A stretch of 64,000 bases of DNA from a virus: IMG/VR virus record IMGVR_UViG_3300009128_000002. The stretch is one strand, 5' to 3'. Positions 13,568 to 34,924 of the stretch are shown here, in pieces (the first letter of the stretch is position 1; each line of letters starts with the position of its first letter). The notes below the pieces were generated by a model. The model was not told the origin of the DNA and made no database searches. It worked only from the letters and a program-made list of their open reading frames with translations. The position numbers and the translations under genes are program-made.

Positions 13568-14761
13568 ATGTTTTTATCAGAAGAAATTAAAGATAAGTGG
13601 GAGCCGGTTATGGAGCACGCAGATGTACCTGCAATTAAAGATGCTACAAAACGAGCTATTACACTTCGTCTTTTAGAAAATCAACAGACAGCTTTAGATG
13701 AAGCTAATGTTACAGGTGCTAATGTAGATAACTGGGATCCAGTTCTTATTTCATTAGTTCGTCGTACTATGCCTAAACTTATGGCATATGACACAATTGG
13801 TGTACAACCAATGAGTGGTCCAACTGGTCTTATCTTTGCAATGAAATCTCATTACACTGGTAACGCCGCTACTGGTGCTGAAGCTCTTACTACTACTGCA
13901 GGTGCTCCAGATACAGATTTTGCTGGTGACGATGGTACTGCTGACGCAATGACTACTGCACAAGGTGAGAATCTTGGTGGTTTTGATGGTGGTGCAACTA
14001 CTTACAATGAGATGTCATTCTCAATTGAAAAGTCAAGTGTTACTGCTAAAACTAAGGCACTTAAAGCCAAGTACTCTTTAGAACTTGCACAAGACCTTAA
14101 AGCAATTCATGGTTTAGACGCTGAGTCTGAATTAAGTAACATTCTTTCAGGTGAAATTCTTGCTGAAATCAACCGTGAGATTATCAATACTATTAGTTCA
14201 CAAGCTACTGCTGGTGCTACTGCTGGTACTACTACTGCTGGTACTTTCGACGTTGCTGATGCAGTTGATAACCGTGGTGCTCGTTGGGGTGGTGAACGTT
14301 ATAAGTCACTACTTGTACAGATTAACAAGGAAGCAAACTTAATTGCTAAGAACACTGGTCGTGGTCGTGGTAACTGGTTAATCGTATCTCCAGATGTTGC
14401 ATCTGCTCTAGATATGACTTCTTCACTTGCTGAACCTAATATGTCACTTGACAACGGTTCACAACCTGACGTTACTGACAACGTGTTTGCTGGTACATTA
14501 GGTGGTAAGTTTAAGGTATTTGTTGACCAATTTGCTTCTAGTGATTCAGTAATCGTTGGTTTTAAAGGTTCAAATATGTATGATGCTGGTATGTTCTACT
14601 GCCCATACGTTCCATTACAGTTGATGAAATCAATTGGTGAAGAGGACTTCCAACCACGTCTTGGTTTCAAGACTCGTTACGGAATTACTATGAATCCATT
14701 TGCTTCTGGTGCTGCTGGTGCAAACCCTTACTTCCGTAAGTTTACTGTTACTAACCTGTAA
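13568..14761 (+). CDS. gp23: Major capsid protein gp23
   Basis: GVQPMSGPTGLIFAM, ELAQDLKAIHGLDAE and FQPRLGFKTRYG motifs. Confidence 0.98.
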   Translation: MFLSEEIKDKWEPVMEHADVPAIKDATKRAITLRLLENQQTALDEANVTGANVDNWDPVLISLVRRTMPKLMAYDTIGVQPMSGPTGLIFAMKSHYTGNAATGAEALTTTAGAPDTDFAGDDGTADAMTTAQGENLGGFDGGATTYNEMSFSIEKSSVTAKTKALKAKYSLELAQDLKAIHGLDAESELSNILSGEILAEINREIINTISSQATAGATAGTTTAGTFDVADAVDNRGARWGGERYKSLLVQINKEANLIAKNTGRGRGNWLIVSPDVASALDMTSSLAEPNMSLDNGSQPDVTDNVFAGTLGGKFKVFVDQFASSDSVIVGFKGSNMYDAGMFYCPYVPLQLMKSIGEEDFQPRLGFKTRYGITMNPFASGAAGANPYFRKFTVTNL

Positions 14762-15799: not shown

Positions 15800-17278
15800 A
15801 TGAGTGATATAGTAGTACACATCAAAGATGATGTATTTTTAAATGTAGAATGTGAGTCAGGTATTGGACATGAATTATCCGATTTCTTTACATTTGAAGT
15901 ACCTGGCTATAAATTTATGCCAGCATATCGTGCTAGAGCATGGGACGGTAAAATACGTTTGTTCAATGTATTTGGTGGTGAGGTTTATGTAGGTCTTTTA
16001 CCCTATATTATTGAGTTTGCAAAACGACGTGAATATACACTAGAATACCCTAAAAAACACATTATTCAAACCCTTAAATCCACTGAGGACTTCGTTAAGG
16101 GGTTAAATCCCCACGTTAATTCGTCCCCTATATTACCATACGAGTATCAAATAAAAGCCATTAATCACGCAATTAACAACGATAGGGCACTTTTACTATC
16201 ACCAACTTCATCTGGTAAGTCGTTTATGATATATGGGTTAACACAATATTACCGTAAAGAACAAGACCGTAAAATTCTTATTATTGTACCTACAACATCA
16301 CTTGTTGAACAACTATACAAAGACTTTGCTGATTATGCTTCTGAACTAGACCCTACGTTTTCTGACGACAACGTTCATAGAATCTATTCAGGCAAAGAAA
16401 AAGAAACTGATAAACAAATCGTAATCACAACGTGGCAATCTATTTACAAATTAAAGAAACCATTCTTTGAACAATTTGGTTGTGTTATTGGTGATGAAGC
16501 ACATAACTTCAAAGCAAAATCATTAACGTCTATTTTAACTAAGATGACAGATTGTAAATATAAGTTTGGTTTTACTGGTACACTTGATGGTACAACTACG
16601 CATAAATTAGTGCTTGAGGGATTGTTTGGTGCTGTTAAAAAAGTTATCACAACGAAACAATTAATGGACGATGAAACAATTACAAAATTACATATTGAAG
16701 CAATCATGTTGAAATATAAAGATGATGAACGCAAATTTGTAAAACAATTAACATACCAAGAAGAAATTGATTGGTTGATTGACCACCCTAAACGAAATAA
16801 ATTTATTTGTGACTTGTCTTTGAGTAGAACTAAAAACACATTAGTGTTATTTCAATTCGTAGAAAAGCACGGAAAGAAGTTATATGAATATCTTAAAAAG
16901 AAAGAACCAGAACGACCAATATTTTTCGTATCGGGAAACGTTGGAGTCGATGTTCGTGAGGAAATACGAGCAATCACCGAGAGTAGTACAAATGCTATTA
17001 TCGTCGCTTCATATGGGACTTATTCTACTGGTATCAATATTCGCAATCTTCATAACATTATTTTTGCTCATCCTAGTAAATCCCGTATTAGGAATTTACA
17101 ATCGGTTGGTAGAGGTTTACGAAAATCTGAAGGAAAGGAAGTAGCAACGTTATTTGATTTGAGTGACGATTTGTCTTGGAAGAAACACAAAAACTTTTCA
17201 TTGAAACATTTCATTGAAAGGGTAAAAATTTATAACACAGAAAAATTTGATTACAAACTAAGGAGCATTAAATTATGA
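15800..17278 (+). CDS. uvsW: Helicase UvsW
   Basis: WDGKIRLF, SPTSSGKS, GDEAH and LQSVGRGLR motifs. Confidence 0.95.
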   Translation: MSDIVVHIKDDVFLNVECESGIGHELSDFFTFEVPGYKFMPAYRARAWDGKIRLFNVFGGEVYVGLLPYIIEFAKRREYTLEYPKKHIIQTLKSTEDFVKGLNPHVNSSPILPYEYQIKAINHAINNDRALLLSPTSSGKSFMIYGLTQYYRKEQDRKILIIVPTTSLVEQLYKDFADYASELDPTFSDDNVHRIYSGKEKETDKQIVITTWQSIYKLKKPFFEQFGCVIGDEAHNFKAKSLTSILTKMTDCKYKFGFTGTLDGTTTHKLVLEGLFGAVKKVITTKQLMDDETITKLHIEAIMLKYKDDERKFVKQLTYQEEIDWLIDHPKRNKFICDLSLSRTKNTLVLFQFVEKHGKKLYEYLKKKEPERPIFFVSGNVGVDVREEIRAITESSTNAIIVASYGTYSTGINIRNLHNIIFAHPSKSRIRNLQSVGRGLRKSEGKEVATLFDLSDDLSWKKHKNFSLKHFIERVKIYNTEKFDYKLRSIKL

Positions 17279-17577
17279 ATATATCAGTAGTACATATGAA
17301 ACATACAGGCACAGAAGTTATTTGTGACCTAATTGAAATGAATGAAGAAAATATGGCAATCACTATCAAAGACCCACAGACGATTGGTGTAGTATCCCAC
17401 GATGACCAGGGCGCACAATTAGGATTTACACCATTTTTAATGAGTTGTAAGGACAATATTATACATTTAGCACTTCAAGACATTTTATTCATTGCAGAAG
17501 CAAACCCACAAATCGCAGAACAATATCAAAGTATGTTTTCTCCAATTGATCTACCAAGTCAGAAAATAATCACATAA
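17275..17577 (+). CDS. Sm-like fold protein of T4-like phages
   Basis: TGTEVICDL...IKDP...GFTPF...ILFIAEA...EQY pattern resembles the Sm-like family of marine T4-like phages (recalled, not searched). Confidence 0.55.
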   Translation: MNISVVHMKHTGTEVICDLIEMNEENMAITIKDPQTIGVVSHDDQGAQLGFTPFLMSCKDNIIHLALQDILFIAEANPQIAEQYQSMFSPIDLPSQKIIT

Positions 17578-17582
17578 ATCGC

Positions 17583-17636
17583 TTGACTTTTGTATAAGTA
17601 TAGTGTATAATATATTGAAAATTACACATATAAATA
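17583..17636 (+). promoter_or_regulatory. Tandem sigma70-type promoter and late promoter reading into the non-coding region
   Basis: TTGACT-N17-TATAAT (17583-17611); TATAAATA (17629-17636). Confidence 0.75.
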
Positions 17637-17639
17637 CAA

Positions 17640-17895
17640 ATTCTGCCTAGAACGTGAAAACTAGGATAGTAGCGAAAGTGAAGTGAGCAGACTATAATAT
17701 CTTAAACGTAATTAGATTGAGGTCTGTAATTTGATGCCAACGTGTAATGGCTAAATAATTAAAATAATCGTGTCAGGACTCTCACCACATAATGGTATCA
17801 TATAGTCCAGTAGAGATGGGTGAATTGACATTCAGTGGCAAATAGGAATCCGTAACCTATCTCTAGGGATTATAGTGTGTATAGAAGTTAACTTC
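17640..17895 (+). ncRNA. Candidate structured non-coding RNA of unknown class
   Basis: No ORF of 60 aa or more; several stems: CCTAG/CTAGG, CAGAC/GTCTG, GCCA/TGGC, ATAATC/GATTAT, GGACT/AGTCC, TAGAGATGGG/CCTATCTCTA, TGAAT/ATTCA. Confidence 0.5.
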
Positions 17896-17923
17896 AAGAT
17901 ACTAGAAGAAAATATAGATTAAG

Positions 17924-18118
17924 AAAATGAAGACGGTCTTGCGAAGCAAGACCCGAAAACACGTAACGAAGTGAAGTGTTTTCGATTGGTGTAGTCGATG
18001 TAATTTTAAACTACATTAAGCTACTCCAGTGACCTGAAGTGTATCAAATGGTTCTTCAATCTACATATGGACACTTCGTGCCCATATGTGGGTTACTTCG
18101 TAACCCTGTCTTCATTTT
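17924..18118. repeat. Inverted-repeat-bounded hairpin array with GAA triloops on opposite strands (origin-like)
   Basis: AAAATGAAGAC...GTCTTCATTTT encloses GGTCTTGC-GAA-GCAAGACC, CGAAAACAC..ac-GAA-gt..GTGTTTTCG, ACATATGGACAC-TTC-GTGCCCATATGT and GGGTTAC-TTC-GTAACCC. Confidence 0.8.
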
Positions 18119-18138
18119 ATTTAATTCTAGTTACTTGC

Positions 18139-18167
18139 TAGACATATAGTCATTTCTATGTTATAAT
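18139..18167 (+). promoter_or_regulatory. Sigma70-type promoter for gp55
   Basis: TAGACA-N17-TATAAT with TG. Confidence 0.65.
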
Positions 18168-18202
18168 TAATCTATTAAAACTACATTAATAAAGGATATA
18201 CA

Positions 18203-18814
18203 GTGTCAAAAGAAATTAAAACACCAGTCGATAAGGATAATAAAAATCATTACATTAATAATAAGGATTTCTTAGCGGCTTTAATCGAATATCAAGCAGA
18301 TATTAAAGATAAAGAAGAAAGAGGTTTACCAAAACCTTATGTAACTGATTATATTGCTAGGTGTTTTCTTCAAATTGCTCAACGTCTTTCTTTTAGACCT
18401 AATTTTATTAACTACACTTATAAAGATGATATGATTAGTGATGGGTTAGAAAATTGTTTAGCATATATGCATAATTTCAATCCAGAAAAATCTGATAATC
18501 CTTTTGCATATTTTACACAAATTATTTACTATGCATTCCTTAGAAGAATTCAAAAAGAGAAAAAACAACAGTATGTGAAGTACAAGTATTTTGATACTGC
18601 AGGTGGTTTTGAGCAAATGGACGAATTACAAGAACACGACAAAGAATCATTTGACTTTATTAATGATAAAGGGTCTGTAGATTTTCATATTCACATTAAA
18701 GAATTTATTGACGATATGGAAAAGAAAGAAGCAGAGAAAAAAGCAAAAAGGGAAGCGAAGATTAAAGAAAAAGAAATGAAGCAAAATAATTTATCATTCT
18801 TTATGGGTGTGTAA
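18203..18814 (+). CDS. gp55: Late sigma factor gp55
   Basis: HYINNKDF, PNFINYTY and NPFAYFTQIIYYAFLRRIQKEKKQ motifs; GTG start. Confidence 0.96.
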   Translation: MSKEIKTPVDKDNKNHYINNKDFLAALIEYQADIKDKEERGLPKPYVTDYIARCFLQIAQRLSFRPNFINYTYKDDMISDGLENCLAYMHNFNPEKSDNPFAYFTQIIYYAFLRRIQKEKKQQYVKYKYFDTAGGFEQMDELQEHDKESFDFINDKGSVDFHIHIKEFIDDMEKKEAEKKAKREAKIKEKEMKQNNLSFFMGV

Positions 18815-32425: not shown

Positions 32426-34924
32426 ATGGCATTTTATACATCAGTAAATGTATTAGGAAATAAAGTTTTAAGTAGGGGTATTAATGATGATGGGAGTGAT
32501 TTCATCCGTAGGGTTGATTTTAAACCAACTATGTTTGTGCCAGGAAAGACAGGTGATACAAAATATACCACATTAGAGGGTGAAAAGGTTTACCCAATAA
32601 AACCAGGCACTATTAAAGAAACACGTGACTTTATTAAACAATATAATGATGTTGGTGGGTTTAATGTATATGGTATTGAGCATTTTGATTTACAGTTCAT
32701 TTATGAAAATTGGCAAGGTGATGTTGAATTTGACCCAACATTAGTTAGGGTATATAATATTGATATTGAGGTTGAATCTGATAAAGGTTTCCCACACCCA
32801 GATAAGGCAGAAAGTATTATTAATGCTATTACAGTATATGATAATATTAAAGATACTTATTTCACGTGGGGTTTAGAACCGTGGGAATACGGACACGAAT
32901 TTACTGAAGATGAAATAAAGGTTGTGTACACACAACACGATTGTGAAGAAGATTTACTGAAATCATTCTTAGATTTTTGGGAACTTACACCACCACATAT
33001 TGTGACTGGTTGGAACGTTGAAGGTTTTGATATACCGTATATTATTAATAGATATGCACGTATCTTTGGTGTAGCAGAAACTAAAAGGTTTTCCCCTTTT
33101 GGGTGGATTAAGGAACGTAAATTAACATCAAATTTCGGTAAGGAATATGTTGTATATGACATGTTTGGTGTGCAGGTAGTGGACTATATGAAATTGTATA
33201 AAAAGTTCACATATAAGATGCAGGAGTCATATAAACTAGATTGGATTGGACACGTAGAACTTGGTGAAAAGAAGTTATCATATGAAGAAGAGGGTTCATT
33301 GCTTCAACTTTCAAGGGTTAATTATCAAAAGTTTATTGACTACAATATTAAAGACGTAGAACTTGTTAAACGTTTAGATGAAAAAATGAAATTGATGGAT
33401 CTTTTGTTAACTATGAGTTATGATGCGAAGATTAATTATCAAGATGTGTTTGGTACTGTAAAGCAGTGGGATTCTATTATTCATGATTATTTACGTAGAC
33501 AACATATTGTTGCACCACCAAAACAACAAACATCAAAGAATGAAAAGTATGAAGGTGCATATGTTAAATCGCCAATTTTAGGGAAACATAGTTGGATTGT
33601 ATCTTTCGACTTAAACAGTCTATATCCACACCTTATTATGCAATACAACATTTCACCTGAAACTATTGCTGGGTATAAGTCTGGTGTTAACGTTAATTCA
33701 TTATTAAACCGTTCGGTACAATTAGGTGATTTGAAGGACGAAAACCTGACAGTTGCACCGAACGGTACAATGTATCGTAGGGATAAGAGAGGTTTCTTGC
33801 CCGAGTTAATGGAAAAGATTTACAAGGAACGTAAAGTTTTTAAGGGTAAAATGCTTGACGCACAACAACGTAAAGAAAATGGTGAAGATACTACGAATGA
33901 AATATCTAAGTATAATAACATTCAAATGGCCCGTAAAATTCAATTGAACTCTGCCTATGGTGCAATTGGTAATCAATGGTTTCGTTACTACGATCTACGT
34001 AATGCTGAAGCAATTACAACAGGTGGACAATTATCTATTCGATGGATTGAAAAGAAGTTGAATGAATTTTTAAATAATATTTGTAAAACCACTGATTATG
34101 ATTATGTGGTTGCTATTGATACAGATTCTGTTTATTTGCGTTTGGAAAATGTTGTAAATGGTGCATTTGCAGGTAAAGAACAAATAAAAGAAAAGGTTGT
34201 AGATTTTCTTGATACTATTGCAGAGAAAACTATTGAACCTTTTATTGATAAGTCGTATGAGGAACTTGGTGATTATGTAAATGCATATGAACAAAAAATG
34301 CAAATGGGACGAGAAGCAATTAGTGATAGTGGTATTTGGACTGCTAAGAAACGTTATGCATTAAACGTCTATGATAATGAAGGTGTACGTTATGCAGAAC
34401 CTAAAATGAAAGTAATGGGACTTGAAATTGTTAAATCATCAACGCCTGCAAACGTCCGTGGTAAATTAAAAGAAGCAGTTGGTATTATGTTGACTGGAAG
34501 TGAAAGACAGTTAAAAGATTTAGTGCATAAATATAAAGGTGAATTTAATTCTTTAAGTGTTGAGGATATTTCATTTCCACGTGGTATAAATGAATTTACT
34601 AAATATAAGAATAGAGATAAAAGTGTACCAATTCATGTTAAAGGTGCTAAGTTGTTTAATAAACTTAAAAAACAACACGGTATTAATAATATTGAAGATA
34701 TAACAGATGGTACTAAAATTAAATTCATTTACTTGAAAGTACCAAACCCACATACACAAAATGTTATTTCATTTGTTAGTGGTATCCCGCCAGAATTTGG
34801 TTTAGGAAGGTGGATTGATTATGATACACAATTTTATAAGTCTTTTATAAAACCATTAGAAGGTATCTTAGAACCTATTGGTTGGGATTGGGAAGAAAAG
34901 AGTACATTAGATTCATTTTTTTAG
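32426..34924 (+). CDS. gp43: Family B DNA polymerase gp43
   Basis: DIEV (ExoI), SFDLNSLYP, KIQLNSAYG, IDTDS and KKRY motifs. Confidence 0.98.
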   Translation: MAFYTSVNVLGNKVLSRGINDDGSDFIRRVDFKPTMFVPGKTGDTKYTTLEGEKVYPIKPGTIKETRDFIKQYNDVGGFNVYGIEHFDLQFIYENWQGDVEFDPTLVRVYNIDIEVESDKGFPHPDKAESIINAITVYDNIKDTYFTWGLEPWEYGHEFTEDEIKVVYTQHDCEEDLLKSFLDFWELTPPHIVTGWNVEGFDIPYIINRYARIFGVAETKRFSPFGWIKERKLTSNFGKEYVVYDMFGVQVVDYMKLYKKFTYKMQESYKLDWIGHVELGEKKLSYEEEGSLLQLSRVNYQKFIDYNIKDVELVKRLDEKMKLMDLLLTMSYDAKINYQDVFGTVKQWDSIIHDYLRRQHIVAPPKQQTSKNEKYEGAYVKSPILGKHSWIVSFDLNSLYPHLIMQYNISPETIAGYKSGVNVNSLLNRSVQLGDLKDENLTVAPNGTMYRRDKRGFLPELMEKIYKERKVFKGKMLDAQQRKENGEDTTNEISKYNNIQMARKIQLNSAYGAIGNQWFRYYDLRNAEAITTGGQLSIRWIEKKLNEFLNNICKTTDYDYVVAIDTDSVYLRLENVVNGAFAGKEQIKEKVVDFLDTIAEKTIEPFIDKSYEELGDYVNAYEQKMQMGREAISDSGIWTAKKRYALNVYDNEGVRYAEPKMKVMGLEIVKSSTPANVRGKLKEAVGIMLTGSERQLKDLVHKYKGEFNSLSVEDISFPRGINEFTKYKNRDKSVPIHVKGAKLFNKLKKQHGINNIEDITDGTKIKFIYLKVPNPHTQNVISFVSGIPPEFGLGRWIDYDTQFYKSFIKPLEGILEPIGWDWEEKSTLDSFF

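Follow-up and report, generated by a model that had tools for sequence, protein, structure and literature searches.

The gene for the late sigma factor gp55 in a marine T4-like phage is preceded by a non-coding gap in which several small hairpins are packed together. The question raised by this locus is whether these hairpins belong to an RNA or constitute a signal in the DNA itself and, in the latter case, what such a signal may do. An earlier note on this DNA had described them as a two-fold symmetric signal at the DNA level, most plausibly a bidirectional replication origin or else a packaging or recombination site. Here, the array was examined in the window, by which we mean the whole 64-kb stretch of DNA analyzed, and compared with loci in other viruses.

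Results

The array lies between a structured RNA and the gp55 promoter

The gene content of the window identified its source as a marine T4-like myovirus with a GC content of approximately 33%. The genes for gp23, a gp3-like tail protein, uvsY, and uvsW are followed by an ORF of 100 aa and, beyond a non-coding gap of 625 nt, by gp55, gp47, and gp46 (Table 1). Farther along are genes for gp45, gp44, gp43, uvsX, gp41, gp61, topoisomerase II, and ligase. A T4-type replisome is encoded in the window, with the gp41 helicase and with gp61, which is annotated as a DNA primase and which we take to be of the DnaG type. The nearest isolates as judged by gp55 are HTVC008M and cyanomyoviruses, at just 50-56% identity or thereabouts, and blastn of the 625-nt gap against isolate phages returned no match. 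For the 100-aa ORF an Sm-like/Hfq identity was considered and rejected, having no Pfam support (top match DUF6561, E 0.029). Homologues of this ORF are also present in phages that have neither the RNA nor the array described below.

The gap holds a structured ncRNA and then the hairpin array. The ncRNA, which we treat as context and not as part of the array, is supported by compensatory changes at 29 of its 48 predicted pairs and has its G.U pairs on the + strand; identity is 70-85% in most relatives. A long-range helix of its own closes the ncRNA, which ends about 55 nt before the array. It carries a GUGAAGUGAG motif resembling GAACGAAGTGAG of the array.

A sigma70-like promoter, conserved in the alignment of relatives and followed by the late-promoter motif TATAAATA, reads into the ncRNA and then the array. 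Because this promoter is strong and no clear terminator lies between, the + strand of the array is probably transcribed in the marine clade, and its left arm may thus have a role as RNA. Directly after the array comes the gp55 promoter, and a promoter scoring 10-12/12 was found at the same place in all 41 arrays examined (41/41). The leftward promoter-like site just left of the array is peculiar to the window and was not conserved in the 40 other arrays. To the right of the array, no minus-strand promoter was conserved among the 41 arrays, the scores of 7-9/12 being those of background. A model of convergent RNAs was rejected on these grounds, there being no conserved backward promoter on the right and a leftward one on the left in the window only.

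Table 1. Coordinates of the array, its surroundings, and the RB43 copies (window positions unless a record or locus is named)
Feature	Position	Strand	Details
gp23	13568-14761		followed by gp3-like tail protein gene, then uvsY
uvsW	15800-17278		
100-aa ORF after uvsW	17275-17577		PHROG 527 (unknown function)
sigma70-like promoter into ncRNA, then array	17583-17611	+	TTGACT-17-TATAAT, 11/12
structured ncRNA	17638-17865	+	~228 nt; covariation
leftward promoter-like site	17869-17897	-	TTGAAG-17-TATAAT, 10/12; just left of array
whole array	17918-18126		209 nt; just upstream of gp55
outer inverted repeat, left arm	17924-17934		AAAATGAAGAC
hairpin 1	17935-17953	+	8 bp, GGTCTTGC-GAA-GCAAGACC
hairpin 2	17954-17984	+	9-bp outer stem, imperfect inner GTAAC-GAA-GTGAA
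variable center	17985-18062		imperfect stem ~17989-18024, motif TTTAAACTACATT
hairpin 3	18063-18089	-	ACATATGGGCAC-GAA-GTGTCCATATGT, c-GAA-g loop
hairpin 4	18090-18106	-	GGGTTAC-GAA-GTAACCC, 7 bp; TTC loop on +
outer inverted repeat, right arm	18108-18118		GTCTTCATTTT
gp55 sigma70-like promoter	18139-18167	+	TAGACA-17-TATAAT with TG, 11/12; right after array
gp55 (late sigma factor gene)	18203-18814		followed by gp47, gp46
RB43 copies (NC_007023)	103648-103838; 32564-32726; 138384-138552		160-190 bp
RB43 copies in fetched loci	L199:3001-3191; L200:3065-3227; L201:2985-3153		

Hairpins with GNA loops are mirrored on the two strands

The earlier note had listed an 11-bp inverted repeat enclosing four hairpins. 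Every one of these coordinates agrees with the sequence, and a repeat search of the window recovered the same arms. The outer arm AAAATGAAGAC is the exact reverse complement of GTCTTCATTTT, giving 11 perfect base pairs. Hairpin 1 includes GCGAAGC, the classic DNA mini-hairpin heptamer, which occurs a single time in the 64-kb window, and hairpin 2 is a variant of the family motif stem-GA-RC-GAA-GY-GA-stem' defined below. Hairpin 3 has 12 pairs and, like hairpin 4, a TTC loop on the + strand, so that both loops read GAA on the minus strand. The array of the window is slightly atypical for the family in that three of its four hairpins are fully Watson-Crick, with the RC-GAA-GY core retained. Over the full 64 kb of the window, no c-GNA-g hairpin with a stem of at least 7 bp was found outside the array.

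The 209-nt stretch folds far better than expected, with z values of -8.9 (+) and -10.6 (-) under RNA parameters and of -7.9 and -8.2 for the two strands under DNA parameters; no shuffle was as good in either case. Purine skew is positive in the left arm and negative in the right arm, the flip falling near 18000-18020. The center, 17985-18062, has the lowest GC of the array but is not clearly AT-rich (27-43%, against approximately 33% for the genome). A direct repeat of 15 nt with 14/15 identical positions, TTTAAACTACATTAA at 18005-18019 and TTAAAACTACATTAA at 18175-18189, connects the center of the array with the beginning of the gp55 leader.

The design is conserved among marine relatives

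We then compared 80 IMG/VR loci encoding relatives of gp55. Loci with gp55 identity of at least ~64% have a long gap of 430-950 nt before gp55; in more distant loci, HTVC008M, and S-PM2 the gap is short, at 120-230 nt. The array could not be aligned by blastn, yet the design recurs: relative to the gp55 start, CGAAG is found around -200 to -310 and CTTCG around -96 to -125.

The hairpin unit was defined from the alignment of one clade together with an explicit motif search. Its triloop is c-GNA-g, with GAA the usual loop, and sits on a 2-bp RC/GY stem; next come a 5'-GA/3'-AG tandem mismatch and then an outer stem that covaries. In a second type of hairpin the tandem G.A is placed outside a stem of 5-6 bp. 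In 38 distinct arrays, 54 G.A/GNA hairpins were found on the + strand at the left and 30 on the minus strand at the right, with one ambiguous case (in L013) and one array, that of L023, having + strand hairpins only. Two + strand G.A/GAA hairpins at L023:2845-2902 stand where right arms usually sit, a natural half-array variant. The unit was matched 84 times in 14.3 kb of arrays versus 7 unrelated matches in 203 kb of flanking DNA, and its density in arrays was approximately 340 times that in flanking DNA.

The left module was represented by 16 distinct sequences, in which the Watson-Crick helices are 97-100% paired and eight pairs show compensatory changes, a number reached in 0 of 500 shuffles, slid controls giving 0-2 such pairs. 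All four tandem G.A positions are the same in every one of the 16. This pattern of near-complete pairing, covariation, and fixed G.A positions points to selection for intrastrand pairing in the hairpins. The earlier note had supposed that loop identity and geometry are kept while stem sequences differ, and had called for a comparison of the uvsW-gp55 gaps of related phages; this comparison bore out the supposition, the stems of relatives covarying beneath GNA (mostly GAA) loops in a conserved architecture.

The strand on which each hairpin lies was assigned because of the G.A mismatches and GNA loops, and not from wobble counts. The earlier note had argued from a single mismatch in hairpin 3, which is A-C on the + strand and reads G.T on the minus strand. 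This holds for 18063-18089, but does not carry over to the family, in which the few wobbles number five G.T versus three A.C overall and one versus two in the right arm. A crude comparison of folding energy by strand, in which the left half favored the + strand in 33/39 and the right half was neutral, was superseded by the explicit motif detection.

The array is present in single copy in contigs of 50-124 kb. Two more distant marine phages whose gp55 is only ~46% identical, L107 and L135, also have an array before gp55, each with an upstream promoter of its own and without the 228-nt ncRNA. No such hairpin cluster was found in HTVC008M, S-PM2, or T4. The center of the array is variable. Since it is not clearly AT-rich in the window and several relatives have next to no center at all, a classical unwinding element does not appear to be conserved. 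In one relative (L001:2745-2830) the center carries a tandem duplication of ~43 nt (TGTCCTAAAACTATAGGATTGATGTAATAATTTATCCTTACA) with an iteron-like look. Another T4-like contig has 1.6 kb without ORFs of at least 70 aa beside gp3-like, uvsY, and uvsW genes (L152:2696-4318), and this stretch carries five GAACGAAGTGA motifs, on both strands.

RB43 and its relatives carry three copies

When viral contigs were scanned for the mirrored motif, matches on one strand were estimated to be about as frequent as by chance, and only matches symmetric on both strands were used. Besides marine T4-like contigs and three giant-virus bins, these involved RB43, RB16, Lw1, and CfP1. Three unannotated copies of the homologous element, at stable positions, are present in RB43 and in each of 64 further Pseudotevenvirus records. 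In RB43, two + strand G.A/GAA hairpins are followed by a core and by two hairpins on the minus strand. The core is visibly A+T-rich, nearly identical between copies, and closed by an inverted repeat of its own. The core is flanked by AACTACAT, related to the 15-nt direct repeat of the window. A central AACTACA motif was considered as a feature shared by marine and RB43 elements and set aside as weak, being about 3-fold enriched and present in 9/41 arrays.

Site 1 of RB43 lies between rnh and gene 55, site 2 between gene 3 and ORF200w near genes 2, 4, 53, and 5, and site 3 between gene 24 and uvsY, where the copy ends 48 nt before uvsY. The rnh/gene 55 and gene 3/ORF200w gaps are divergently transcribed, and outward sigma70 promoters scoring 11/12 stand on both flanks of sites 1 and 3. 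At the uvsY copy, the leftward 11/12 promoter is directed antisense into gene 24. The 228-nt ncRNA does not accompany the RB43 arrays. A Pfam search with ORF200w gave no match.

The T4 record puts oriF at the 5' end of uvsY; oriE falls within gene 5, 3.4 kb away from the gene 3/2 junction. By position, therefore, one RB43 copy corresponds closely to a T4 origin (oriF) and another, the gene 3 copy, loosely (oriE). Gene 3, uvsY, and gene 55, beside which the RB43 copies lie, sit together as one block in the marine phage (14853-18814), as would be expected if copies of the element stood at old synteny breakpoints.

The giant-virus matches (L088:2590-2870, L093:1-230, and L100:5490-5730) are local repeats of the same GAGCGAAGCGAG/GAACGAAGTGAG hairpin unit, mirrored about a stretch of A+T-rich DNA. 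In the one 1-Mb giant-virus bin that could be counted, the motif showed no genome-wide enrichment. A dispersed repeat of the MITE or REP-like kind was rejected as an identity for the array, there being one site per long contig, none in HTVC008M, S-PM2, and T4, and no enrichment in the giant-virus bin. A search of the available literature for the motif strings and the RB43 repeats found nothing relevant.

Discussion

A signal in DNA or a part of an RNA

We favor the reading of the array as a DNA-level signal rather than an RNA gene, because its purine-rich form is mirrored on the two strands, no conserved promoter would supply the minus strand of the right arm, two of the RB43 copies lie in divergently transcribed gaps, arrays exist without a neighboring ncRNA, and this type of loop is far more stable as DNA than as RNA. 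The DNA heptamer d(GCGAAGC) melts at 76.5 °C, and the RNA form of a related GAAA loop at 39 °C (PMC13037366). DNA mini-hairpins of the c-GNA-g type are found in the primase origins of G4, St-1, and alpha3, in ssiA of RSF1010, and in the promoters of N4 (PMC13037366, PMC8567376).

That the array is instead the 3' part of the + strand ncRNA, as a domain or a tail, folding as a whole into a multi-branched RNA with the 11-bp outer repeat as its closing stem and serving to stabilize or process the ncRNA, we consider the least probable of the readings weighed here. It would account for the conserved promoter that reads through ncRNA and array with no clear terminator between them, for the fold of the + strand RNA (z -8.9) with its closing stem, and for the preference of the left-arm hairpins for the + strand. 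Yet the ncRNA has a closing long-range helix of its own and stops short of the array, arrays occur without it, and Rfam covariance models, searched on both strands of the ncRNA/array region with E values up to 10, gave no relevant match. Moreover, as + strand RNA the right arm would show conserved tandem U.C/C.U mismatches and UNC loops, a conservation that an RNA tail would leave without explanation.

Transcription, supercoiling, and recombination as alternatives

The position of the array directly before a 10-12/12 sigma70 promoter is what would be expected of a transcriptional insulator, or composite terminator-promoter cassette, comparable to the PeSLs of T4-type phages. Transcripts arriving from either side would carry the purine-rich G.A/GNA form of the hairpins and stop or pause there, shielding the early gp55 promoter from upstream transcription that is mostly late. 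In the PeSL cassettes of T4-like genomes, too, stem-loops are placed right next to strong early promoters of the sigma70 type (PMC2839356, PMC4122927), and terminator-like matches are present at 18090-18106 (+) and 17953-17935 (-) in the window and at RB43 site 1. Even so, we judge this reading unlikely. The T runs do not abut the stems but begin 6-8 nt past them in the window, and none follows the array in the aligned clade of relatives; the two RB43 copies in divergent gaps are entered by no annotated or predicted transcript; and triloops of the GNA type have no special stability as RNA (PMC13037366). PeSLs, furthermore, are numerous, lie in hyperplastic regions, and have stem-loops that terminate effectively, whereas in the conserved core genome the array has a single site, or three in RB43, and consists of strand-mirrored G.A/GNA hairpins with no abutting U tract. 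A supercoil-sensitive or protein-bound regulatory site, which would tune the adjacent early promoters (gp55, uvsY) by absorbing negative supercoils on extrusion or by binding a phage protein, seems to us quite unlikely. N4 hairpins extrude at physiological superhelicity. Such c-GNA-g hairpins act as promoter elements in N4 (PMC13037366), and both the fixed spacing of the array, with right-arm motifs ~96-125 nt before the gp55 start, and the placement of RB43 elements between outward-firing promoters would suit a role of this kind. On the other hand, the genes served would vary (gp55, uvsY, ORF200w, rnh, gene 3), no candidate binding protein was identified, and HTVC008M, S-PM2, and T4 express gp55 without the element.

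A hot spot for recombination or rearrangement, or a selfish repeat, is improbable in our view. Cruciform extrusion and cutting by endonuclease VII or gp46/47 would, in that case, lead to recombination-dependent replication and genome shuffling. The RB43 copies do flank genes that are contiguous in the marine phage, related cassettes form local repeats in giant-virus bins, and the array lies beside the gp47 and gp46 genes. Against this, its positions are stable in 65 Pseudotevenvirus genomes and in the marine clade, it is not dispersed (one site per long contig, with the giant-virus bin unenriched), and purifying conservation is strong at the G.A and loop positions, which speaks for a function that depends on sequence.

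The array as a proposed origin-like signal

Our preferred reading, which we put forward tentatively and at somewhat less than even confidence, is that the array is an origin-like signal at the DNA level. We rank it first because of the strand geometry and the dedicated inbound promoter, as in T4 oriF/oriG. One or two very stable mini-hairpins, in most cases zipped by tandem sheared G.A pairs, are set on the + strand at the left and on the minus strand at the right, each hairpin-bearing strand being oriented 5'-to-3' toward the center. According to this proposal, once the duplex is opened, the favored hairpin could form on each strand. The opening might be brought about by transcripts that start at the promoter firing into the array, in the manner of T4 oriF/oriG, or alternatively by negative supercoiling beside the strong gp55 promoter. 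The hairpins would keep the region open and mark a start for the T4-type replisome (gp41 helicase, gp61 primase, and helicase loader), and synthesis would proceed outward both ways, the geometry being that found at RSF1010 ssiA/ssiB and at G4-type primase origins. Opening of the array, its binding or priming, and a start of replication there are steps that we infer.

The strand geometry is as expected if two forks diverged and the template of each leading strand carried a priming signal. It is likewise as expected for 3' tails formed by resection of a central break and for the displaced strand of inbound transcription. Of the earlier note's central claim, the two-fold symmetric structure was upheld by the comparison and its DNA level is favored; the bidirectional origin stays circumstantial, suggested by the RB43 copy at the site of T4 oriF and by the likeness to ssiA/ssiB. 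A packaging or recombination role, the note's alternative, gained no support here, although it may still apply. GC skew, driven by transcription, is positive throughout the window and does not shift at the array. T4, HTVC008M, and S-PM2 are without the element, and it therefore cannot be a general origin of T4-like phages.

Among known systems, ssiA/ssiB of the IncQ plasmid RSF1010 resemble the array in having two hairpin signals on complementary strands in inverted orientation, each with a c-GAA-g mini-hairpin (CCGAAGG in ssiA; PMC13037366). In RSF1010, the primer starts on the 3' side of the hairpin and copying runs outward (PMC8567376, PMC13037366). The array has this strand geometry without sequence similarity, and unlike ssiA/ssiB it carries on each side one or two hairpins zipped by tandem G.A. 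PHROG scans of 29 ORFs in the window, which is part of the genome, detected no RepB'-type primase, RepA, or RepC, and no iterons or tandem repeats were found in the 625-nt gap of the window. The origins of G4, St-1, and alpha3, which are used by a DnaG-type primase (PMC13037366), also have clusters of hairpins with GCGAAAGC/GCGTTAGC-type mini-hairpins, but they serve one strand of a single-stranded genome, whereas the array is mirrored on both strands of a duplex genome.

T4 oriF and oriG, which use a promoter and an R-loop (PMC3016281), are like the array non-coding, located near recombination and replication genes, and provided with a dedicated promoter firing in. The displaced-strand model of T4 origins would fit the left arm of the array (PMC3016281). 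The T4 origins have a MotA-dependent middle promoter and an A+T-rich unwinding element, and share no sequence motif (PMC3016281). The promoter at the array is not of the MotA middle type but of the sigma70 type with a -35 hexamer, no TGCTT at -30 being seen by eye; T4, moreover, is without such hairpins, and the center in the window is not clearly A+T-rich. In the promoters of the N4 virion RNA polymerase, a stem of 5-7 bp and a 3-nt c-GNA-g loop recur (PMC13037366), and the hairpins lie upstream on the template strand, as do those of the array when read outward. Ordinary sigma70 promoters, however, flank the array, and no gene for a giant N4-type RNA polymerase is present in the 64-kb window, the largest ORF (832 aa) being the gp43 DNA polymerase.

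Implications for T4-like phages

A wider possibility, about which we are rather doubtful, is that strand-mirrored, G.A-zipped c-GNA-g arrays make up a sequence-defined class of T4-like origins, in which the hairpins would load or prime each strand. Such a class might include abundant marine myoviruses, with one copy before gp55, its own promoter, and, in this clade, a structured ncRNA, as well as the enteric Pseudotevenvirus group, with three copies.

To our knowledge, it is not known how replication starts in T4-like phages other than T4. A conserved DNA-structure signal with a defined strand logic offers a concrete target for deletion, transplanting, and probing, and the element is found in easily grown coliphages (RB43, RB16, and Lw1) as well as in uncultured marine myoviruses. 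Even if the array should prove to be an insulator or a promoter modulator, its mini-hairpins, in which a G.A zipper is joined to a GNA loop, would be natural, DNA-specific structures under strong selection in duplex viral genomes.
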